The translations under genes and the position numbers were made by a program. Below, piece by piece: positions 14,988 to 23,689 of a stretch of 23,689 bases of DNA; the stretch's first letter is position 1, and the number at the start of each line of letters is the position of its first letter. Under the pieces are notes generated by a model. It had not been told where the DNA came from, searched no databases, and saw nothing but the letters and a program-made list of their open reading frames with translations. This DNA is from a virus (Duplodnaviria > Heunggongvirae > Uroviricota > Caudoviricetes), in IMG/VR virus record IMGVR_UViG_2698536618_000024, positions 1-23,689 of that record. One strand, 5' to 3'.

Positions 14988-16403
14988 ATGGCTACGTGGC
15001 AACAGGGTATTAATTCTGGTGGGTTTCTTGCTGGCATCGGTGCGCAAAATGAGAATGCGCCAAAGGCAAGCGACATTAACGCAACGCTTGGTCTGATCCG
15101 CGAAAACAATGAACTGGCTCGATCAGGCGCAAATAACGTTGGTCTGACCGCGTTACGTGGTCTGGCTGGAGTTGCTGATATTTATAAGCAGGAACAGCAA
15201 CAGAAAGCTATTAGTGCGTTCAATAAGGTTCACGCTGATGCATGGGCTTCTGGTGATCCATCGGGACTATTTAAGTTTGCCCAGGAAAATCCAGCGTTTG
15301 TTGCACAGGCACAACAGGCGTTTTCCGGTCTTAATGAGCAGCAACGCAACGATATGGGCGATTTAGCCATGAGGGCTAACGTCGCTCTTTCTCAGGGACC
15401 GGAAGCCTACAGTAAATTCATTACTGACAACAAGGACAGGTTAAATCGTGTGGGTGCGAATGCTGACTGGATGATTCAGACAGGTATTCAGAATCCAGAG
15501 CAGCTATCACACATGCTGACTACTATGTCTCTCGGTGCGCTTGGACCAGAAAAGGCGTTTGCTGTTCAGGATAAGATGGCTGGTCGTGAAATTGACCGAG
15601 GCAGGCTGGCAGAGACAATCCGCAGCAATCAGGCTGGCGAGGCACTTCAGGCGAGAGGGCAAAACCTTTCCTATCAGTCAGCAATGACTGGGCACAATAT
15701 CGCAGCACAACGCTTGGCTCTGGATCAGCAAGAGTTCGGGTTTAAGATGCAGCAAGCGCAGGAAAAGGCTCAGCAGTTGATTAGCGAAGCACCTAAGCTG
15801 TCAGTAAACATGGAAAAAGGCATCGAGACGGCTGTAAACAATGCCACAGCATCATCAAACTCAGCCAATTCTATGAGTGCACTTGCTCAACAGTTCAGAG
15901 CAGAAAAACCAACGACAGGTTTGTTCGGTAACGCACAGAACATGTTCGCAAAACTTACCGGAAGCGATACGACATTGCGTGATTTGCGCATTCGCCAAAA
16001 TGCCCTTGTTAACAGTCAGGTTCTTAAATTCCTACCTCCCGGCCCAGCAACGGATAAAGACGTTGAGATCGTTCGACAGGGTGCGCCAACTGACATGGAT
16101 AACCCTGAGACGGTCGCAAGATGGCTTGATGCAATGGCAAACCTTGAGCGACGAAACGCGCAGTTTAATGAGTTTAAAGCCGAGTGGATGAGCGCGAATG
16201 GCAACCCTGGACAATCGCGTAATGGCGGTCAGATATTGGGGTTGGATGTTAAAAAAGGTGAATCATTGGGGAGTGCCGTTAAGCGGTATATGTCAATGAA
16301 TACTGACGCAGCGCCAGCACAAGATTCGACACCTTCAGGTGAACCACGGAATCAGGTTGGATCATATACCTCAAAATCAGGCATTCAATTTACGGTGGAA
16401 TGA
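14988..16403 (+). CDS. Ejection protein, P22 gp20-like
   Basis: 471 aa, [19 protein letters not shown]-terminus, same size and position as P22 gp20. Confidence 0.9.
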
Positions 16404-18241
16404 TGAAAGTAACTGCAAACGGTAAGACATTTACCTTTCCTGATGGTACGAGCACCGAAGATATTGGAACCGCCATTGATGAGTATTTTGCTGGTCAGGC
16501 TGTTCAGCAACAAACAGTTAATCAGGACAATAATGCACCAACACGGGAAGAACCATCATTGATGCAACAAGCTGGCGATTGGATCACTGGTGGTCAAAGT
16601 GCAGGGCAAATTGCAGAACAGGCTGGTCGTGGTCTGGTAAACATACCATTTGACGTATTGCAGGGTGGCGCAAGTCTGATTAATGCAATCAGTCAGGGGC
16701 TTGGTGGGCCAAAAGTTTTGGATGATGTTTATCGTCCAGTAGACAAACCGACAGACCCATACGCACAAGCCGGTGAAACAATTGGTGGGTATTTAGTTCC
16801 AGGAGTTGGAACGGCAGGAAGCATGGCTATTGGCTCACTGGCAGAGGCCGCAAATCAGAAAGGCGATTTCGCACAAAATGCAGCTAAAAATGCCGGAGTT
16901 AACCTTGCCGCTCAGGGTGTTCTTTCCGCAGCAGCAAAGGGAATAGGGCGTGGAATAACGGCTATAAAAGGTGATATTGCGCCAGAAGTGGCGAAGAAAA
17001 TTGCCACATCAGAATCGATGGGCGTGACACCAATGACATCTGATGTTATCCCGCCGAAAAATGCTTTCACTCGCGGCCTTACTCAGGATGCCGAGGGGGC
17101 TTTGCTCGGGACGGGCTCAAAGCGAGCAGAGCAATATGCAACGCGTAGTAAGCTGGTAAGCAATTATTTTGACCGTTTTGGTGAGTACAACCCTGATGAT
17201 GTGGTGAAATCTCTGACCACCACGTTAAGGGGGCGGAAGGATGCTGCTGGCGCTGTTATCAATGACGTCACCAATAAAATGGGTAATGCCGCAGTTGATA
17301 CCACAAATACCATGAATGCTCTGAATACAGCGATCGCAAGACAGGAACGACTTGGGACGTCTGCCAATCAAAGCCTGCTTACATCCTTGCGTAACCTGCG
17401 TGAAGAATTAGCAAACCCTGCAACTGATTTGGATGTTACGTTTGATCTCTTGCGTCAGCACAGAACAGCATTTAGATCTAATGTTCAGGGAGATGCTATG
17501 GTCTTCCCCAACCAGGCAAAAGCAGCTACCAATATGGTAGAGAATGCAATGTCAAAAGACCTTCGTAACGCAGTTGCTAAAAACCTCGGTGCATCAGACG
17601 CAGCAAAATACCTTAAAGCAAATTCCGATTATGCAAACGTTTATAATAAGGTGCTTAATAAAAACATTGCCAACAAGCTCAACAAGGCAAGCAGTGAAGC
17701 CAGTCCTGAACTTATAAATACCGTTGTATTAAGCAGAAAACCATCTGACGTGAAACGAATCTGGAGCGCATTGGATGATAAAGGGAAAGATGCTATGCGT
17801 GCAGCTTACGTCAGCAAAATAGCGGAAAAGGCCGGTGACTCTCCAGCCAAGTTCATCACTGAAGTTAATAAGCTGAAATCTCAGTCAGGCGGTGAAATTT
17901 ACAACACTATTTTTTCTGGAAAGCACATGAAAGAGCTTGATGCTCTTCATGAAGTTCTACAGCAAACAGCAAGGTCAGACACCGCAAATGTAGTAACTCA
18001 GACGGGGCAATCGCAAGCCAACAGGATAAGGACGATTGGCGCAACTGCGACTCTTGGTGTATCAATGGGGCTTGAGGCTGGTTTCGGTGCAATCATGCGC
18101 TTGTATGAGTCCAAAGCAGCAAGGAATGCTCTCTTACGTTTGGCAAACACCAAAGCAGGAACACCAGCCTATGAAAGAGCGCTAAATAATGCTGCAAATG
18201 CCGTCAGGCCGCTGTTTGCTACTGAGGCAACACAGCAGTAA
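16400..18241 (+). CDS. Ejection protein, P22 gp16-like
   Basis: 613 aa; N-terminus [32 protein letters not shown] matches recalled P22 gp16. Confidence 0.9.
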
Positions 18242-18265
18242 CGTATGGGAAATTGGATTCAATCG

Positions 18266-18655
18266 CTAACATTTTCTTTTTACTTTCCCAACAAAAGCTT
18301 TGGTTGAATCCATATTTCCATAACCGGAAATGGTTTTTGACATTAAAACTGTTCCAGTAGGATGTATTACCCATGAGTCGATAACGCGTTGAGTTTCGCC
18401 ATTCGCGCCGATTCCTATGATGGAGTTTTTAGACAATGCTTTGTAAGCCATGCCGCCCGCATCTGTCCCAGAATATGTGATGCTGGCATCTTCACCGCTT
18501 GTCTTAATGATGAATGTTCCACTAAAACCATCTTCTTCCGGATGGAAATTATTTCGTTCTGAATAGCTTATTCCGCGCATATCTCCAACGACCCAGCACT
18601 CTGCTGTAGCCCCAAAAGATATGAATAAGAACATAGCAGCAAGAAATTGCTTCAC
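18266..18655 (-). CDS. Hypothetical secreted/periplasmic protein (about 129 aa with Sec signal peptide)
   Basis: Start reassigned to GTG at 18655 (minus strand): AAGGAGG lies 5 nt upstream and the product begins MKQFLAAMFLFISFGATA/ECW, a classic n-h-c signal peptide with AXA site; the ORF-track extension to 18871 is antisense to the neighbouring plus gene and not protein-like. Confidence 0.55.
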   Translation of the reverse strand: MKQFLAAMFLFISFGATAECWVVGDMRGISYSERNNFHPEEDGFSGTFIIKTSGEDASITYSGTDAGGMAYKALSKNSIIGIGANGETQRVIDSWVIHPTGTVLMSKTISGYGNMDSTKAFVGKVKRKC

Positions 18656-18685
18656 ACCAACCTCCTTAGTTTTGCGCAGGATACC

Positions 18686-19051
18686 ATGAAAAAAGTTAAC
18701 ATTGGAAACGTACCAAAAATGCTCGTTCCGCTCTTTGAGAGCGGTACAATTGTGTTTTGCAGAGACTTTCCAGAATGGCAACGCCTGCATCAAAAACTTG
18801 GCGTGGACGTGCAGGACTCGGATGCCAACGGAGCGTCTCATACAATGAGCAGCGAGAATGGTGTTTTGCATGTGATAGGTGTGTTCAATGGCAAACTATC
18901 TACTATTGCCCATGAGTGCGCTCACATGGCATTCGATATCTGCTCAAGGGTCGGCGTTGATGTTGAACCAGGAAGAGCCAACGAGACTTACTGCTACTTA
19001 ATGAGCAGGCTTGTTGAGTTCTGCGAGCGACATATCAAAAAGCCGGAGTGA
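18686..19051 (+). CDS. Hypothetical protein with HEXXH zinc-binding-type motif (about 121 aa)
   Basis: Translation contains STIAHECAHMAFD (HEXXH at nt 18910-18924) in a hydrophobic context typical of zincin active-site helices; start at ATG 18686 to avoid overlap with the divergent secreted-protein gene; family not identified. Confidence 0.5.
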   Translation: MKKVNIGNVPKMLVPLFESGTIVFCRDFPEWQRLHQKLGVDVQDSDANGASHTMSSENGVLHVIGVFNGKLSTIAHECAHMAFDICSRVGVDVEPGRANETYCYLMSRLVEFCERHIKKPE

Positions 19052-19058
19052 ACCGGCT
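19036..19058 (-). terminator. Intrinsic terminator for the minus-strand small gene, overlapping the 3' end of the HEXXH gene
   Basis: AGCCGG-AGTGAA-CCGGCT hairpin (19041-19058); the A-run 19036-19040 on the plus strand gives a U-run after the stem on the minus strand. Confidence 0.4.
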
Positions 19059-19064
19059 TGATTA

Positions 19065-19244
19065 TTACTTTTTGCTGTCTGGAGTTCGCTTATCTAATAC
19101 CCAGCCATGACCTGGCTTTGTTGTTGGTGGAAGTCTTTCGTTGTCCTTGACGGTGGCAAAATTATCTTTCTTACCGCCGCGTGGGCCAACTTCTTGGTAT
19201 ATTCCGCCGTTTTTTCCTGTGTTTTCACCTGGTTTTTTCGCCAT
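19065..19244 (-). CDS. Hypothetical small protein (59 aa), Gly/Lys/Pro-rich
   Basis: MAKKPGENTGKNGGIYQEVGPRGGKKDNFATVKDNERLPPTTKPGHGWVLDKRTPDSKK; GAGG RBS 7 nt upstream of ATG 19244; own terminator downstream; pattern loosely resembles small YjzC-like proteins as I recall them (unverified). Confidence 0.5.
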   Translation of the reverse strand: MAKKPGENTGKNGGIYQEVGPRGGKKDNFATVKDNERLPPTTKPGHGWVLDKRTPDSKK

Positions 19245-19335
19245 GATATACCTCAACATACACCCGTTATTGGGCGATTAAATATTGATCTCATTTTATA
19301 AGTAGTCAATATGGCCCAGGTAAATGCAAAAATTA

Positions 19336-19358
19336 ACCCACCGTCAGGTGGTTTTTTT
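19336..19358 (+). terminator. Rho-independent terminator (first of two in tandem upstream of tailspike)
   Basis: CCACC-GTCA-GGTGG (19338-19351) followed by TTTTTTT 19352-19358. Confidence 0.5.
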
Positions 19359-19409
19359 GTACAAATCCTTCAGCCAGTACATAACTACTGACAGATAACC
19401 AACGCAACG

Positions 19410-19433
19410 ACCCAGCTTCGGCTGGGTTTTTTT
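19410..19433 (+). terminator. Rho-independent terminator (second of tandem pair)
   Basis: ACCCAGC-TTCG-GCTGGGT (19410-19427), 7-bp stem with tetraloop, then TTTTTT 19428-19433. Confidence 0.6.
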
Positions 19434-19491
19434 ATGCCCAAAATTCACCGTGGCCACGCTGCGGCGATTCATTGTATCTGGAGCAAATTAA

Positions 19492-21288
19492 ATGACAGAC
19501 ATTACAGCCAATGTGATCGTATCGATGCCTTCGCAACTTTTCACTATGGCGCGTTCTTTTAAAGCTGTAGCCAATGGCAAAATTTATATCGGTCAGGTTG
19601 ACACTGACCCGGTAAATCCTGAAAACCAGATCCCTGTATATCTGGAACGAGAAGATGGCTCTCATGTTCAGGTGGCGCAGCCAATAGTTATCAACGCTGC
19701 TGGATATCCGGTATATAACGGGCAGATCGCCAAGTTCGCAACTGTACAGAATCACTCCATGGCTGTATATGATGCGTATGGCGCACAACAATTCTATTAT
19801 CCTGATCTACTGAAATATTCTCCAGACCAGTTAAGGGCTGAGCTTTCTGGCCCTGATGGCGCATCTCTGGTTGGTTATGGAGGCACAACCGTAAAGATTG
19901 AGCTGGAGATCTTGAAAGCTACACATGATTCATTAATTGATAAAACAGGATTTAACGCTATTGGCCGCTTTCTCAATCTTTCAGAGCTTCGCTCCTGTGT
20001 TCCAGAGGAGGCAGGGCAGATTGTATACGTAGCATCAGCAGCTAGCACTACACATGCTGAAAACCACCTTGGTGGCGGCTTTTTCGAGTCTGTTGATAAC
20101 ATTCAGGCGTGGGCTGACGATGGTGGAATTGTAATCAAGCCAGAAACTGGAACGATGGTATGGAGACGAATTAATTTTACCACTTACGACATGCAATTTT
20201 GGGGGGTGAAACCTGACGGAGTCACAGATAACGCAACAGCTATAACTCTTGCAACTAACTTTGCCCGCTCAAACAAATGCATTCTAGAGGCTCCTGCTGG
20301 AAACATAAATACATCAAAAACAATCCCAATTTATGACAATATGGGAATTAGAGGACAGGGAAAGGCTGAAGCGACAGTTTTTTATAAAACAACAAATGAC
20401 AAAATAGATCTCACAAAAAATGGAGAAGTAATTCTTCAGGTGGATGCATTATGTGCTTTTATACCAAAGCAATGGGATCTAACAGATAACTCAATGAGTT
20501 CATTTTGTGTTAACGGTAGAGTTGAAAACTGCATGTTTAGAAGGCTTGGCTTAACACAAGAAAACGTAGATTCTTATAGAAATTATTACGGACTGTTTTT
20601 AGGAAAATCAGCAGCACCAGTTATCAGACAGTCAATTTTTGAATGTGCTTATATCGGATGCTTCTCTTATGTGCCGTTCTCTGGCGTAATGGAAATGGTC
20701 GGTTTCCCACAATATCCAGGTAAAGGATATGCTGGAGTTTTATTTGAAGATTTTAGGGATGGTCAAATAAAAGTAATAGGCACTTCTATGGATATGCGCC
20801 TTGTTCAGGTTAACGGTTACCAGTTGTCATTTAGAATGTCAGGAATGCAATATACCACCATGACCAATTGTACTGCTGAAAACTGCACGCCAATGGATGG
20901 GGAGTCAATTTGCTATGCATTTGATTTTGTAAATCCGTATTGCATTGTCATGAATACTTGTGCAACAGAATTTGTTAAGGGTGGGCAACTTCGTGTTAGC
21001 GTTCAGGGAAACCCATCATTCAGACCATCTATTATTGTCAATGGCTTTCTGCCAATTGAACAACAAAGCCCGGTAGTGCAAACACCTATAATAGATATTG
21101 ATAATGGTGGCGTAGTTGAAATGAGTGTCATATTAAATGGTGGAGATTGGGCTATAAATCCATCTGCTGCAAATTTAACCGCACCAAGAGCAAGCGGAAA
21201 TGGGTTGAAAGCAAGGTTAATAGGTGTAAACGGGTCGCCTGTTTCGATCTGGAGCGTGTCTTCTGGCGCAGATGTGAAGGAGTTCTAA
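19492..21288 (+). CDS. Tailspike protein: conserved P22-type N-terminal head-binding domain plus divergent receptor-binding domain
   Basis: First ~115 aa ([11 protein letters not shown]...[58 protein letters not shown]) match the recalled P22 gp9 N-terminal domain; remainder unlike P22 and markedly lower in GC by eye. Confidence 0.9.
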
Positions 21289-21358: not shown

Positions 21359-22468
21359 ATGAATAATAAAGGCAATATAATTCAAAGTCTTACATCGTTG
21401 AGAATGTTTGCAGCCCTTGGTGTTTTCGTTAGTCACCTTGGGTTATTATCTCAATCATCTATTGGCATGTTTAATACTGCGGCAAAGTATTTTTTTAACG
21501 GTTACATAGGTGTAACGTTTTTCTACATTCTTTCAGGTTTCATTATAAACTATAGCTTCACAAATCATATAAAAAAAGAGAGATTTAGCAATAAAGATTT
21601 TATTGTATACAGGATTGCAAGAATATTCCCTGTGCATATAGTGGCGCTTATTTGTTTTATTTTAATATTTATGCATGGTAAGGGTATTGATGGTATTAAT
21701 AATGGAGTGCTTATTTCAAATATATTATTACTACAATCATTTATTCCATTACAGGATTATTACTTTTCCTTTAATTCCGTTTCATGGAGCATCTCATGTG
21801 AGATGTTTTTCTACGTTGCATTTTGCTTATTAACAAGGCTAAAGACAAAGCATTTAACTTGTGTGCTGTTATTTGTGCTTGCGATTAATTTTTATTATTT
21901 AATTAATCCACCATCAGCTATATCACAGCATTGGTTGTTTTATATAAATCCATCATTTAGAATTGGCGATTTCATTATAGGAATGCTGATCTGTAGGGTG
22001 TTTATTAATAGTGATGTAAAAATCAACTATACTGTTTGCAGTATACTTGAGATCGCATCGGTGTTGTCATTGTTTTTGACAATATATGTAGCAACAAACT
22101 ATATCACATATATGAACATAAAATATGATGTTCTATATATCCCTTGCATGGCGTTTATAGTTATTGCATTTGCTTTTAATGGTGGCGTCTTATCTAAGAT
22201 ACTTAAAAATAGATTTATGGTTTTGCTTGGTGAGGCCTCTTTCTCATTTTACATTTTCCATTGGATGATAATACAGGTAATAACTAAGATATTAAACCCT
22301 GACACTGATAATTTGTATGAGATGTTAATGTATATAGCATTTTCTTTATTGGTTTCTATTATTGTATCAATAATCTCATTCAAGGTTATAGAAGTGCCTT
22401 CAAATAAAATAATAAGAGGTTATTGGAGAAAGTTTAGAGGTGATAAATTAACTGCGAAGTGTAGTTAG
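21359..22468 (+). CDS. Integral-membrane acyltransferase family 3 protein; candidate O-antigen acetyltransferase (Oac-like serotype-conversion gene)
   Basis: 369 aa, hydrophobic multi-pass throughout, N-terminal region SLRMFAALGVFVSHLG typical of acyltransferase-3 proteins, strongly AT-rich; sits between tailspike and int, the position I recall for oac in Sf6 and gtrABC in P22. Confidence 0.75.
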   Translation: MNNKGNIIQSLTSLRMFAALGVFVSHLGLLSQSSIGMFNTAAKYFFNGYIGVTFFYILSGFIINYSFTNHIKKERFSNKDFIVYRIARIFPVHIVALICFILIFMHGKGIDGINNGVLISNILLLQSFIPLQDYYFSFNSVSWSISCEMFFYVAFCLLTRLKTKHLTCVLLFVLAINFYYLINPPSAISQHWLFYINPSFRIGDFIIGMLICRVFINSDVKINYTVCSILEIASVLSLFLTIYVATNYITYMNIKYDVLYIPCMAFIVIAFAFNGGVLSKILKNRFMVLLGEASFSFYIFHWMIIQVITKILNPDTDNLYEMLMYIAFSLLVSIIVSIISFKVIEVPSNKIIRGYWRKFRGDKLTAKCS

Positions 22469-22516: not shown

Positions 22517-22550
22517 TGATGAAAAGGTGGATCACTCCACCTTTTCATCA
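22517..22550. repeat. 15-bp perfect palindrome overlapping the integrase stop codon
   Basis: TGATGAAAAGGTGGA (22517-22531) - TCAC - TCCACCTTTTCATCA (22536-22550); the int stop (TGA on minus, 22532-22534) lies in the loop. Confidence 0.7.
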
Positions 22551-23689
22551 AGCCAATCCGCCCACCACTGCATCATTTCTCTGCGCTTATCGAGATACTG
22601 AGCATGGTTGTAAATTCCGCGCACAGATCCGCCGTTGGCATGTGCCAGTTGCACTTCAATAGCGTCGGCAGGCCATTCGTGCTCGTTCATAATCGTGCTG
22701 AATTCATGTCTGAATCCGTGACCGCTTTCCAGACCCTCATAGCCGATTTGTTTGATCACAAGCAATACCGCGTTCTCGCAGATTGGCTTCTTCTTATCGT
22801 TGCGCCCGGCAAAAACAAACTCTGATACTTGTTTAGTGATTGAGCTTAGTGTAGTGAGAAGTTCAACCACCTGGTCTGACATCGGGACCACATGAATTTT
22901 GCGTCCCTTCATCACATTGGCGTCAATGGTGATAATCCTGTTTTCAAAATCGACGTTCTTCCATTGCATGGAACGAAGCTCTTTCGTTCTTAGGGCTGTA
23001 TAGCGTAAAACCTTGGTGGCAATGAGCGATACGATACTTCCTGAAAATGTTGCCAGTGCTTTGTTGAATGCCGGGATCTGGTCTGCAGGTAAAAACGGGA
23101 AGTTCTTCTTGCGGTATCCCTTCATGGCGTCAGCAAGGTCAGGTGCCGGGTTATATTTAGCCCTTCCTGTGACAATAGCGTAACGAAAAACCTCGCCGCA
23201 TCTTCTGCGGGCTTTATTGGCTCGTTCCATTGCACCGCGATCTTCAAATCTGCGGATTACTTCCAGCAGTTGCATCGGCTCTATATCCTGAATCTCAAGA
23301 CCGCCGATGATGGGCAAAATGTCGTCATCAAACATTTTGGCAAGTTCAGTTGCATAGCCTACTGACCAGACTTGCTTCTTGTGCTCGTACCATTCCTTGT
23401 AAATGGCGCTAAAGGAATTGTTGTTAGACGAAGCCTTTTTCGCTTTTACCGGATCGATGCCAACCGAGATGTCTTTCCTCGCGGTCCATGCTTTATCTCT
23501 TGCCTCCTGCAAAGTCATTAGCGGATATTTTCCGACGGTCAGGATTTTCTCCTTACCGTCAATCTTGTAGCGAAGCTGCCATACCTTTTTCCCTGATACA
23601 GGGACATAAAGGTACAGGCCATTACCATCGAGTAGGCGGTATGGTTTTTCTTTCGGCTTAGCTGCTTCAATCTGCTTAACGGTGAGCAT
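22532..23689 (-). CDS. int: Tyrosine integrase (P4-type arm-binding N-terminus)
   Basis: 385 aa; N-terminus MLTVKQIEAAKPKEKPYRLLDGNGLYLYV typical of P4-family integrases; C-terminal HGFRHEF and GIYNHAQY boxes fit the tyrosine recombinase H-x-x-R...Y motifs; start codon is the last 3 nt of the window, so a longer N-terminus cannot be excluded. Confidence 0.9.
   Translation of the reverse strand: MLTVKQIEAAKPKEKPYRLLDGNGLYLYVPVSGKKVWQLRYKIDGKEKILTVGKYPLMTLQEARDKAWTARKDISVGIDPVKAKKASSNNNSFSAIYKEWYEHKKQVWSVGYATELAKMFDDDILPIIGGLEIQDIEPMQLLEVIRRFEDRGAMERANKARRRCGEVFRYAIVTGRAKYNPAPDLADAMKGYRKKNFPFLPADQIPAFNKALATFSGSIVSLIATKVLRYTALRTKELRSMQWKNVDFENRIITIDANVMKGRKIHVVPMSDQVVELLTTLSSITKQVSEFVFAGRNDKKKPICENAVLLVIKQIGYEGLESGHGFRHEFSTIMNEHEWPADAIEVQLAHANGGSVRGIYNHAQYLDKRREMMQWWADWLDEKVE

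Follow-up and report, generated by a model that had tools for sequence, protein, structure and literature searches.

The window, that is, the whole stretch of DNA analysed in this work (23,689 nucleotides of the IMG/VR virus record IMGVR_UViG_2698536618_000024), belongs to a P22-like prophage of the Lederbergvirus type, of which it spans the late region and the right end. Its gene 16 homologue and its tailspike gene are separated by a gap of about 1.25 kb (exactly positions 18242-19491), and this interval is a reduced, HK620-like 'ant moron' with a different, little-known cassette in the position of sieA. The name ant moron has been given to the gene 16-tailspike slot of P22-like phages; ten moron types occur among sixteen genomes, and the presence of immI is variable within the family, as in HK620 (Villafane 2008, PMC2629481). 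We consider it the best overall explanation, with a probability of about 60%, that the interval consists of three independent pieces of such a moron, among which a minus-strand gene in the sieA position (here gene A) would serve as an envelope-protection cassette. A previous inspection of the same DNA (the sequence-only reading) had described three unrecognised genes on alternating strands, taken them for moron-type cargo inside a late operon, and proposed them as the best candidate in the window for an undescribed system. The coordinates, the number of genes and their alternating strands were confirmed, and the assignment to moron-type cargo agrees with the published ant moron. The proposal of an undescribed system did not hold, as two of the genes are the hkcC and orf59a genes of P22 and HK620 and the accompanying tandem terminators are scars of immI; nothing in the interval is a categorically new system, and the region is mostly known biology.

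Megablast searches against phage genomes aligned 722 bp of the window (18653-19374) with P22 13828-14549 at 98.2% identity, and this match recurred in dozens of P22-type records. On the P22 record BK000583 the block begins at the start codon of sieA, takes in the annotated sieA promoter, an unannotated plus-strand open reading frame (ORF), the 'mnt terminator' and orf59a, and ends with the final 31 nt of mnt. Immediately beyond it, window 19375-19460 corresponded to P22 15977-16062 (95% identity), which holds the last 17 nt of ant and the ant terminator. Since the matches ending at P22 14549 and starting at 15977 abut in the window (blastn; 19374-19375, the same junction as in HK620), the 1,427 bp between them (P22 14550-15976; arc, sar and the greater part of both mnt and ant) are absent, and by this alignment the immI genes were lost in an old deletion. 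What is left of a functional immI region (mnt, arc, sar, ant) are 31 nt with the last nine codons of mnt (19344-19374, ...LKDLYKKTT) and 17 nt of ant (19375-19391, plus strand), both placed by alignment with P22. Across the loci surveyed, immI content varied independently, with none of the genes, mnt only, mnt plus arc, or the full set. The earlier statement that no P22 content was recognisable in the interval was thus right for the sieA, mnt, arc and ant genes, which are absent, and wrong for the 722-bp block with hkcC and orf59a.

The two tandem plus-strand terminators reported before are real. Each is a hairpin followed by a run of seven T (19338-19358, which overlaps the mnt remnant and is the 'tMNT' of HK620, and 19409-19435, the ant terminator t_ant), as found both in the hairpin scan and in the P22/HK620 alignment, and the HK620 record describes two terminators as 'associated with remnant of P22 mnt / ant gene'. 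As read from these alignments they are leftovers of mnt and ant from the immI deletion and not parts of a new unit, and the deletion scars account for the odd tandem arrangement before the tailspike gene. Terminator-like sites were enriched in the region (10 observed vs. 2.8 expected), and promoter-like sites were no more numerous than expected from shuffled sequences. The assignment of an own intrinsic terminator to each gene had to be abandoned: hkcC and orf59a share a single bidirectional hairpin (19040-19059; P22 'mnt terminator', HK620 tORF59A), both strands of which fold well (z-scores of -3.5 and -3.2), and gene A has none, with no site in the scan and a downstream fold (z = -1.3) without a U-tract in the region where only 24 nt separate its end from the gene 16 stop codon. 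A 42-aa ORF on the minus strand (19344-19472), whose end LKDLYKKTT is that of P22 Mnt, is a spurious fusion created by the immI deletion and not a gene. A match of the Rfam istR model over the two terminators reached 19.4 bits (cut-off 45 bits; E 0.42) and was discarded as chance.

Colinearity with HK620 was observed at 92.9% identity over 18653-19798, across the deletion junction. The HK620 record (AF335538) annotates hkcC, a bidirectional 'tORF59A' and a possible HkcD 'similar to P22', and by this homology the HEXXH-motif gene of the window is hkcC and the small Gly/Lys-rich gene is orf59a. The two intervals have the same gene order and orientation, hkcC, bidirectional terminator, immI junction and pair of remnant terminators; they differ in that HK620 carries hkcB, which encodes an N-terminal anchor and a coiled coil, where the window carries gene A, and in that orf59a holds an in-frame stop in HK620 and is intact in the window. 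Compared with the ant moron of P22 (sieA, hkcC, orf59a, mnt, arc, sar and ant), the window occupies the same slot between genes 16 and 9 and retains the PsieA region, 5' untranslated region (5'UTR) and GTG, hkcC, the terminator and orf59a at the 98.2% identity given above, whereas gene A replaces the sieA coding sequence and the 1,427 bp of immI are deleted. Both hkcC and 59a are listed as P22 genes without assigned function (PMC2629481); having been named between 2001 and 2008, they have been functionally uncharacterised since.

Gene A (18266-18655, minus strand; phrog_2651) was delimited by its ORF and a signal-like N-terminus, and encodes a predicted secreted protein of 129 aa. Homology of the window to P22 and HK620 stops at 18653, within its start codon. 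In alignment A6 the window, P22 and HK620 were identical over the PsieA region, the leader, the AAGGAGG and the GTG lying seven bases past it, and then continued into the unrelated coding sequences of gene A, sieA and hkcB, respectively; the 85 bp of sieA-type upstream DNA showed two mismatches between the window and P22. Promoter PsieA of P22 (13861-13891) maps to 18686-18716 on the minus strand, within the first codons of hkcC, and the 5'UTR with the Shine-Dalgarno sequence occupies 18656-18685. The start codons of gene A and hkcC, described before as divergent and some 30 bp apart, were measured to be separated by 30 bp. As judged from this alignment, codon 2 is exactly the point from which gene A takes the place of the sieA coding sequence.

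In order to describe the occupants of the sieA position, two surveys were carried out, one of 81 loci anchored on hkcC and the other of at least 119 viral contigs anchored on the 36-nt junction alone. At least 11 unrelated occupant families were present in the 81 hkcC-anchored loci, and 11 families followed the common GTG among the junction-anchored matches listed (119 loci), to which all junction-anchored counts given here refer. The commonest of the latter was a 109-aa protein with an anchor and a coiled coil (31 loci), followed by gene A (27), HkcB-like proteins (21) and SieA (10), with seven more families in one to eight loci each; a 161-aa lipoprotein and a Rap1a-like protein fill the same position via other junctions. 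The N-terminal 15-residue window had a mean Kyte-Doolittle hydropathy of at least 1.77 in 13 of 14 occupant families, as compared with 1.31 for HkcC and -0.7 for Orf59a by the same measure. All occupant families save SieA are annotated in PHROGs as 'unknown function'. About 50 bp comprising the first hkcC codons, the leader, the AAGGAGG and the GTG (window 18656-18716; loci L180-L298) were kept even where hkcC had been replaced, hkcC being intact in only 53 of the 119 junction-bearing contigs. Its behaviour is that of a recombination linker joining two cassettes that appear to be exchanged independently. A 62-aa slot family was considered as a possible ORF within STnc6030 of prophage BTP1 or as orf62 of phage L and was rejected, the family occurring only in phiv205-1, UPF_BP1 and JEP4.

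Some of these observations weigh against regarding the slot as a collection of envelope-directed cassettes acting on phages. The surveyed loci belong to closely related prophages, and their counts are not independent events; one occupant family has no hydrophobic N-terminus; and the Rap1a-like occupant, of the type conferring immunity in type VI secretion systems (T6SS), means that the slot is not purely anti-phage. The Rap1a domain (PF18602, T6SS amidase-effector immunity type) was found in a signal-peptide protein in the sieA position of a divergent P22-like prophage (L299:209-562, minus strand). The presence of this occupant suggests that not only phages but also competing bacteria can be the target of defences carried in the slot.

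Gene A assorts independently of hkcC and orf59a, and the three genes are not one unit. In junction-anchored viral contigs with enough flank, gene A accompanied hkcC and orf59a in five loci and occurred without both in 16 (19 when those with a variant N-terminus are included), so that the survey of co-occurrence that had been suggested as a check spoke against a common unit. In E. coli FORC_031, gene A adjoins the gene of a 139-aa lipoprotein, followed by mnt-arc-ant. In E. coli FDAARGOS_1304 (L086:3758-5224), genes for a Panacea-domain protein and a ClpP-like protease stand next to gene A in place of hkcC and orf59a, before Arc-family genes; this insert may be a toxin-antitoxin or defence insert. 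The whole slot was covered over at least 80% of its length in 19 genomes, vs. 147 for gene A and 131 for this hkcC allele.

The family of gene A comprised 22 clusters with identities down to 46%, and its hosts were prophages of E. coli (147 of 5,426 complete genomes) and Salmonella, together with the two sequenced phages Emek and ST-35. The signal-like N-terminal segment of the protein ends in ATA|EC, and the signal peptide and a pair of cysteines were invariant in the family down to the lowest identity, which is consistent with a product exported through a cleavable signal peptide. The fold was predicted with confidence as a small soluble eight-stranded beta-barrel, which a predicted disulfide between Cys20 and Cys129 would close from the N- to the C-terminus. 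NHBA, NspA, avidins and lipocalin-like proteins were the comparators named for this product, and PhiA ranked 37th among generic barrels. An outer-membrane barrel was discarded, with only 110 mature residues, a KRKC end without the C-terminal aromatic signal, and strands with one hydrophobic face, as fits a soluble core. No match to gene A was obtained in Pfam, NCBIfam or PADLOC, by Foldseek against BFVD at E <= 0.001, or in a profile search of PDB sequences with alignment A1, and neither a Pfam MliC match nor a top structural match connected it with the MliC/PliC lysozyme inhibitors. Lantibiotic and EutA matches in the domain scans of the three proteins were noise.

All three genes look to be under selection as proteins, since the ratio of nonsynonymous to synonymous substitutions (dN/dS) was low in gene A (0.1-0.3, measured against few divergent alleles) and in hkcC (0.05-0.09), and the amino-acid identity of Orf59a stays at 74-80% at a divergence that saturates synonymous sites.

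The hkcC gene (18686-19051, plus strand, co-oriented with the late operon) is 98% identical in its DNA to the P22/HK620 gene and encodes a 121-aa protein with a full-length match to phrog_1365 (E 1.4e-39, residues 1-121), whose motif in the window is HECAH. An exhaustive profile search retrieved 526 representatives at the 50% level, nearly all of them stand-alone proteins of 110-140 aa, and the longer relatives displayed no informative extra domains. Over 100-135 members with 24-43% identity, H76, E77, H80, E100, Y104 and G49 were invariant or near-invariant and N99 was present in 73%, resulting in the signature HEXXH-x19-(N)E with the Glu exactly 20 residues past the second His. This is the spacing of thermolysin-type gluzincins. 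The AlphaFold2 model (predicted local distance difference test, pLDDT, 88.6) has the order beta-beta-alpha-beta-beta-alpha(HEXXH)-alpha(E100), with the motif on a helix and E100 opening the next predicted helix, and this order fits a minimal zincin core, as in minimal gluzincins and SprT-like proteins (PF10263). Weak matches to the SprT-like family were obtained in 28 of 100 HkcC relatives (best E 1e-4, profile positions 63-96, the motif helix), and HkcC of the window had no match at the Pfam gathering threshold of that family. The family profile (A3) gave weak myroilysin/astacin matches among PDB sequences, with E 0.02 for myroilysin over sheet and helix. As the SprT and myroilysin support is weak and incomplete, we describe HkcC as a predicted cytoplasmic, zincin-like minimal metalloprotein outside the curated peptidase families, and not as a member of any of them. 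It could be read from the late operon.

On the opposite strand, orf59a (19065-19244, minus; HkcD of HK620, phrog_3202) encodes a 59-aa protein that was identified by its P22 match and a weak match to PF14168 (YjzC), which was near full-length (profile positions 8-54 of 55, E 0.0017) and fell below the cut-off (19.1 vs. 25 bits). The enterobacterial and environmental relatives that were retrieved had identities of 63-98%; PF14168 is present in relatives at 49-68%, and UniRef names several at 76-81% as YjzC family. Since the homologues begin with MAKKPGEN, an alternative upstream ATG at 19259 is probably not used. In P22, orf59a lies between mnt and the annotated 'mnt terminator', and for this reason it is probably co-transcribed with mnt in lysogens. 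In the window Pmnt is deleted, and what is left for orf59a is a weak promoter-like site at 19281-19309 (minus strand, TTGACT-17-AATATT) detected by its consensus match alone. Literature searches on hkcC/orf59a, YjzC and PRJNA737196 did not yield data on the function or expression of these genes.

In 70 of 84 loci hkcC and orf59a were convergent, with stop codons 12-13 nt apart and a common hairpin, and every junction-anchored locus without hkcC was also without orf59a. In more distant settings HkcC conserved 50-63% identity and Orf59a 76-83%, HkcC of Xenorhabdus being more distant (hidden Markov model E 8e-14). The pair was present in P22-like prophages of Morganella; in siphovirus tail operons of Klebsiella oxytoca, Rosenbergiella and two metagenome-derived contigs, between the YdaY-type chaperone and tape-measure genes; directly after a lysis cassette in Xenorhabdus; and in one further contig of siphovirus type, which also encodes an antirepressor of P22 type and Arc and P63C proteins. 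An insert resembling an ant moron was observed at L300:2198-7489, from chaperone to tape-measure gene of a siphovirus tail operon, and contained hkcC, orf59a, a P22_AR_N antirepressor, Arc and P63C. In the six structural-operon contexts examined, hkcC had the orientation of the structural or lysis genes, with orf59a antisense to them. Searches for related loci from the single remote members P0056 and P0100 gave nothing, and one with the re-ordered alignment A5 returned mostly the same P22-like contigs. As far as these gene neighbourhoods tell, hkcC and orf59a are a conserved, mobile convergent two-gene module. The opposite orientation of the two genes suggests an opposite timing, in which orf59a would be expressed in the lysogen and HkcC late. 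That HkcC might be a late protease by which a factor of the prophage stage is removed or processed is a speculative extension of this idea, to which we give little credence.

The cohesion of the pair is weakened by several findings. In HK620, a viable phage (L017), orf59a is a pseudogene through a GAA -> TAA change within GGIYQEVGPRGG; two contigs (L034/L035) carry frameshifted copies; in around 11 loci the gene of a 72-aa protein with two transmembrane segments stands in place of orf59a, the exchange starting just inside the last two orf59a codons, while hkcC stays intact; and YjzC/orf59a relatives occur without hkcC. Because of the pseudogene, the replacement and these solitary relatives, the pair is not obligate. 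The replacement by the two-transmembrane gene is a second cassette-type exchange in the region. The same findings would agree with hkcC and orf59a being functionally unrelated neighbours that travel together through a common terminator and recombination block, with HkcC not being a protease, and neither Pfam membership nor a structural match to zincins was found for HkcC. We nevertheless regard such a fortuitous association as rather unlikely, since the convergent arrangement, with stops 4-22 nt apart, is kept in podovirus and siphovirus contexts of five genera and two metagenome-derived contigs, and the residues H, E, H and E are invariant in an HkcC family that diverges to 24% identity.

As for gene A, the most likely role, to which we assign slightly less than even odds, is that of a lysogen-expressed envelope factor blocking phage entry in the periplasm; it is rated first because of the precedent of SieA, with the same upstream DNA, and of the immunity transcript of BTP1. 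The sieA gene plus 85 bp of upstream DNA suffices for exclusion, SieA blocks DNA injection, and escape mutations map to gp16 and gp20 (Leavitt 2024, PMC10883804). In lysogens of the P22-like prophage BTP1, superinfection immunity comes from a minus-strand transcript over the gene 16-tailspike interval (Owen 2020, PMC7067206). As the P22 sieA expression signals are conserved in the window (PsieA region, 5'UTR, ribosome-binding site and GTG), gene A would be made in the lysogen like sieA. Its product, once exported, would form a small soluble periplasmic barrel and might block there the delivery of DNA by superinfecting phages, the likely targets being the trans-periplasmic gp7/gp20/gp16 conduit or a tail-associated wall hydrolase. 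T4 Spackle (Sp), a small soluble protein of the periplasm, excludes superinfecting phage by inhibiting the lysozyme of the incoming tail; it serves as a working analogy alone, coming from a different phage group and having no homology to gene A. With P22 SieA (PMC10883804) gene A shares the genomic position (between genes 16 and 9, minus strand, behind PsieA), the upstream signals, the start codon and a predicted envelope-targeted product. In contrast, SieA is a polytopic inner-membrane protein with the motif FxRYPxEAxxFNK, and gene A is a predicted soluble beta-barrel with a cleaved signal, in which a single N-terminal hydrophobic segment precedes the all-beta part; P22 SieA found nothing in the window by tblastn, and the motif is absent from gene A.

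Protection against threats other than phages is suggested by the Rap1a-like occupant of the slot. In that case gene A would act as a periplasmic inhibitor or immunity protein versus wall-degrading enzymes (T6SS amidase effectors, lysozymes, bacteriocins) or other envelope stress. We judge this to be unlikely: gene A had no Pfam match to MliC/PliC or to any inhibitor family at E <= 1, PhiA came 37th among generic barrels, and both SieA, the sole characterised occupant, and the BTP1 transcript act on superinfecting phage. An effect at the RNA level is conceivable because the gene A unit, without a terminator and 24 nt from the gene 16 stop, runs into gene 16, so that its active product could be an antisense RNA to the 3' end of gene 16 that disturbs the late transcripts of a superinfecting relative, the protein being secondary. 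STnc6030 RNA of BTP1 resembles it in covering the same interval on the minus strand, in being expressed in the lysogen and in conferring superinfection immunity, and differs in its description as a non-coding RNA whose base pairing makes it specific for BTP1 (PMC7067206), whereas the unit of the window encodes a conserved protein. With a dN/dS below 1, an invariant signal peptide and cysteine pair, a confident fold, and SieA protein itself being necessary and sufficient in P22 (PMC10883804), an RNA as the main product is very unlikely. Joint action of the three genes as a new defence, anti-defence or exclusion system is extremely improbable: their adjacency, compactness, and divergent and convergent signals, and an identical three-gene order in two viral contigs besides the window (others having immI genes), are outweighed by the independent assortment of gene A and its unrelated neighbours in E. 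coli, by the much rarer occurrence of the whole slot than of its parts, and by the finding that hkcC and orf59a adjoin at least ten other cassettes, including sieA in P22. A scan of the three proteins against PADLOC-DB v2 gave no match to any component model at E <= 1.

The preferred reading, a reduced ant moron with gene A as an envelope-protection cassette, places gene A among 11 or more interchangeable families, which have a common promoter, leader and start codon and are almost without exception predicted to be envelope-targeted; only SieA among them has been studied. Homologies, junctions, conservation, the independent assortment of gene A and the predicted folds are what the analysis shows, and the timing of expression, the localisation and all functions are inferred from them. 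These families constitute a ready panel of candidate exclusion or envelope-protection proteins that can be tested by the assays used for SieA. More ambitiously, the junction of about 50 bp could be a dedicated exchange site for a dozen or more envelope proteins, mostly undescribed exclusion factors, with gene A as the first soluble periplasmic one and disabling the ejection conduit, and with HkcC removing Orf59a; we hold this extended scheme to be doubtful. The genes hkcC and orf59a have been uncharacterised for more than 20 years in the best-studied Salmonella phage; their module is also found in siphoviruses, sometimes beside antirepressor genes, and the zincin signature of HkcC provides a concrete hypothesis for P22. 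Modest interest attaches to two leads, the cassette-exchange junction and the mobile hkcC/orf59a pair; neither was found described in the searchable literature, the coverage of which is incomplete and gives no proof of novelty.

With respect to the surroundings of the interval, the left border is the gene 16 homologue (16400-18241, plus strand), an ejection or DNA transfer protein assigned from its ORF and from matching E. coli prophages annotated as DNA transfer/P22-gp16 family, preceded by gp20 (14988-16403; Pfam Inj_translocase). Upstream of the late genes the phage carries two adjacent transfer RNA genes, tRNA-Asn(GTT) and tRNA-Thr(TGT), at 2031-2186. The right border is the tailspike gene (19492-21288, plus strand), which encodes a short protein of 598 aa with a P22-type head-binding domain (Pfam Head_binding, E 1.3e-62) and whose DNA likeness to the P22 and HK620 genes stops within about the first 300 nt. 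The window ends with an integrase gene identified by its ORF (22532-23689, minus strand). Directly after the tailspike gene, an acyltransferase gene recognised by its Acyl_transf_3 domain (21359-22468) probably encodes an O-antigen acetylase for serotype conversion, presumably comparable to that of Sf6.

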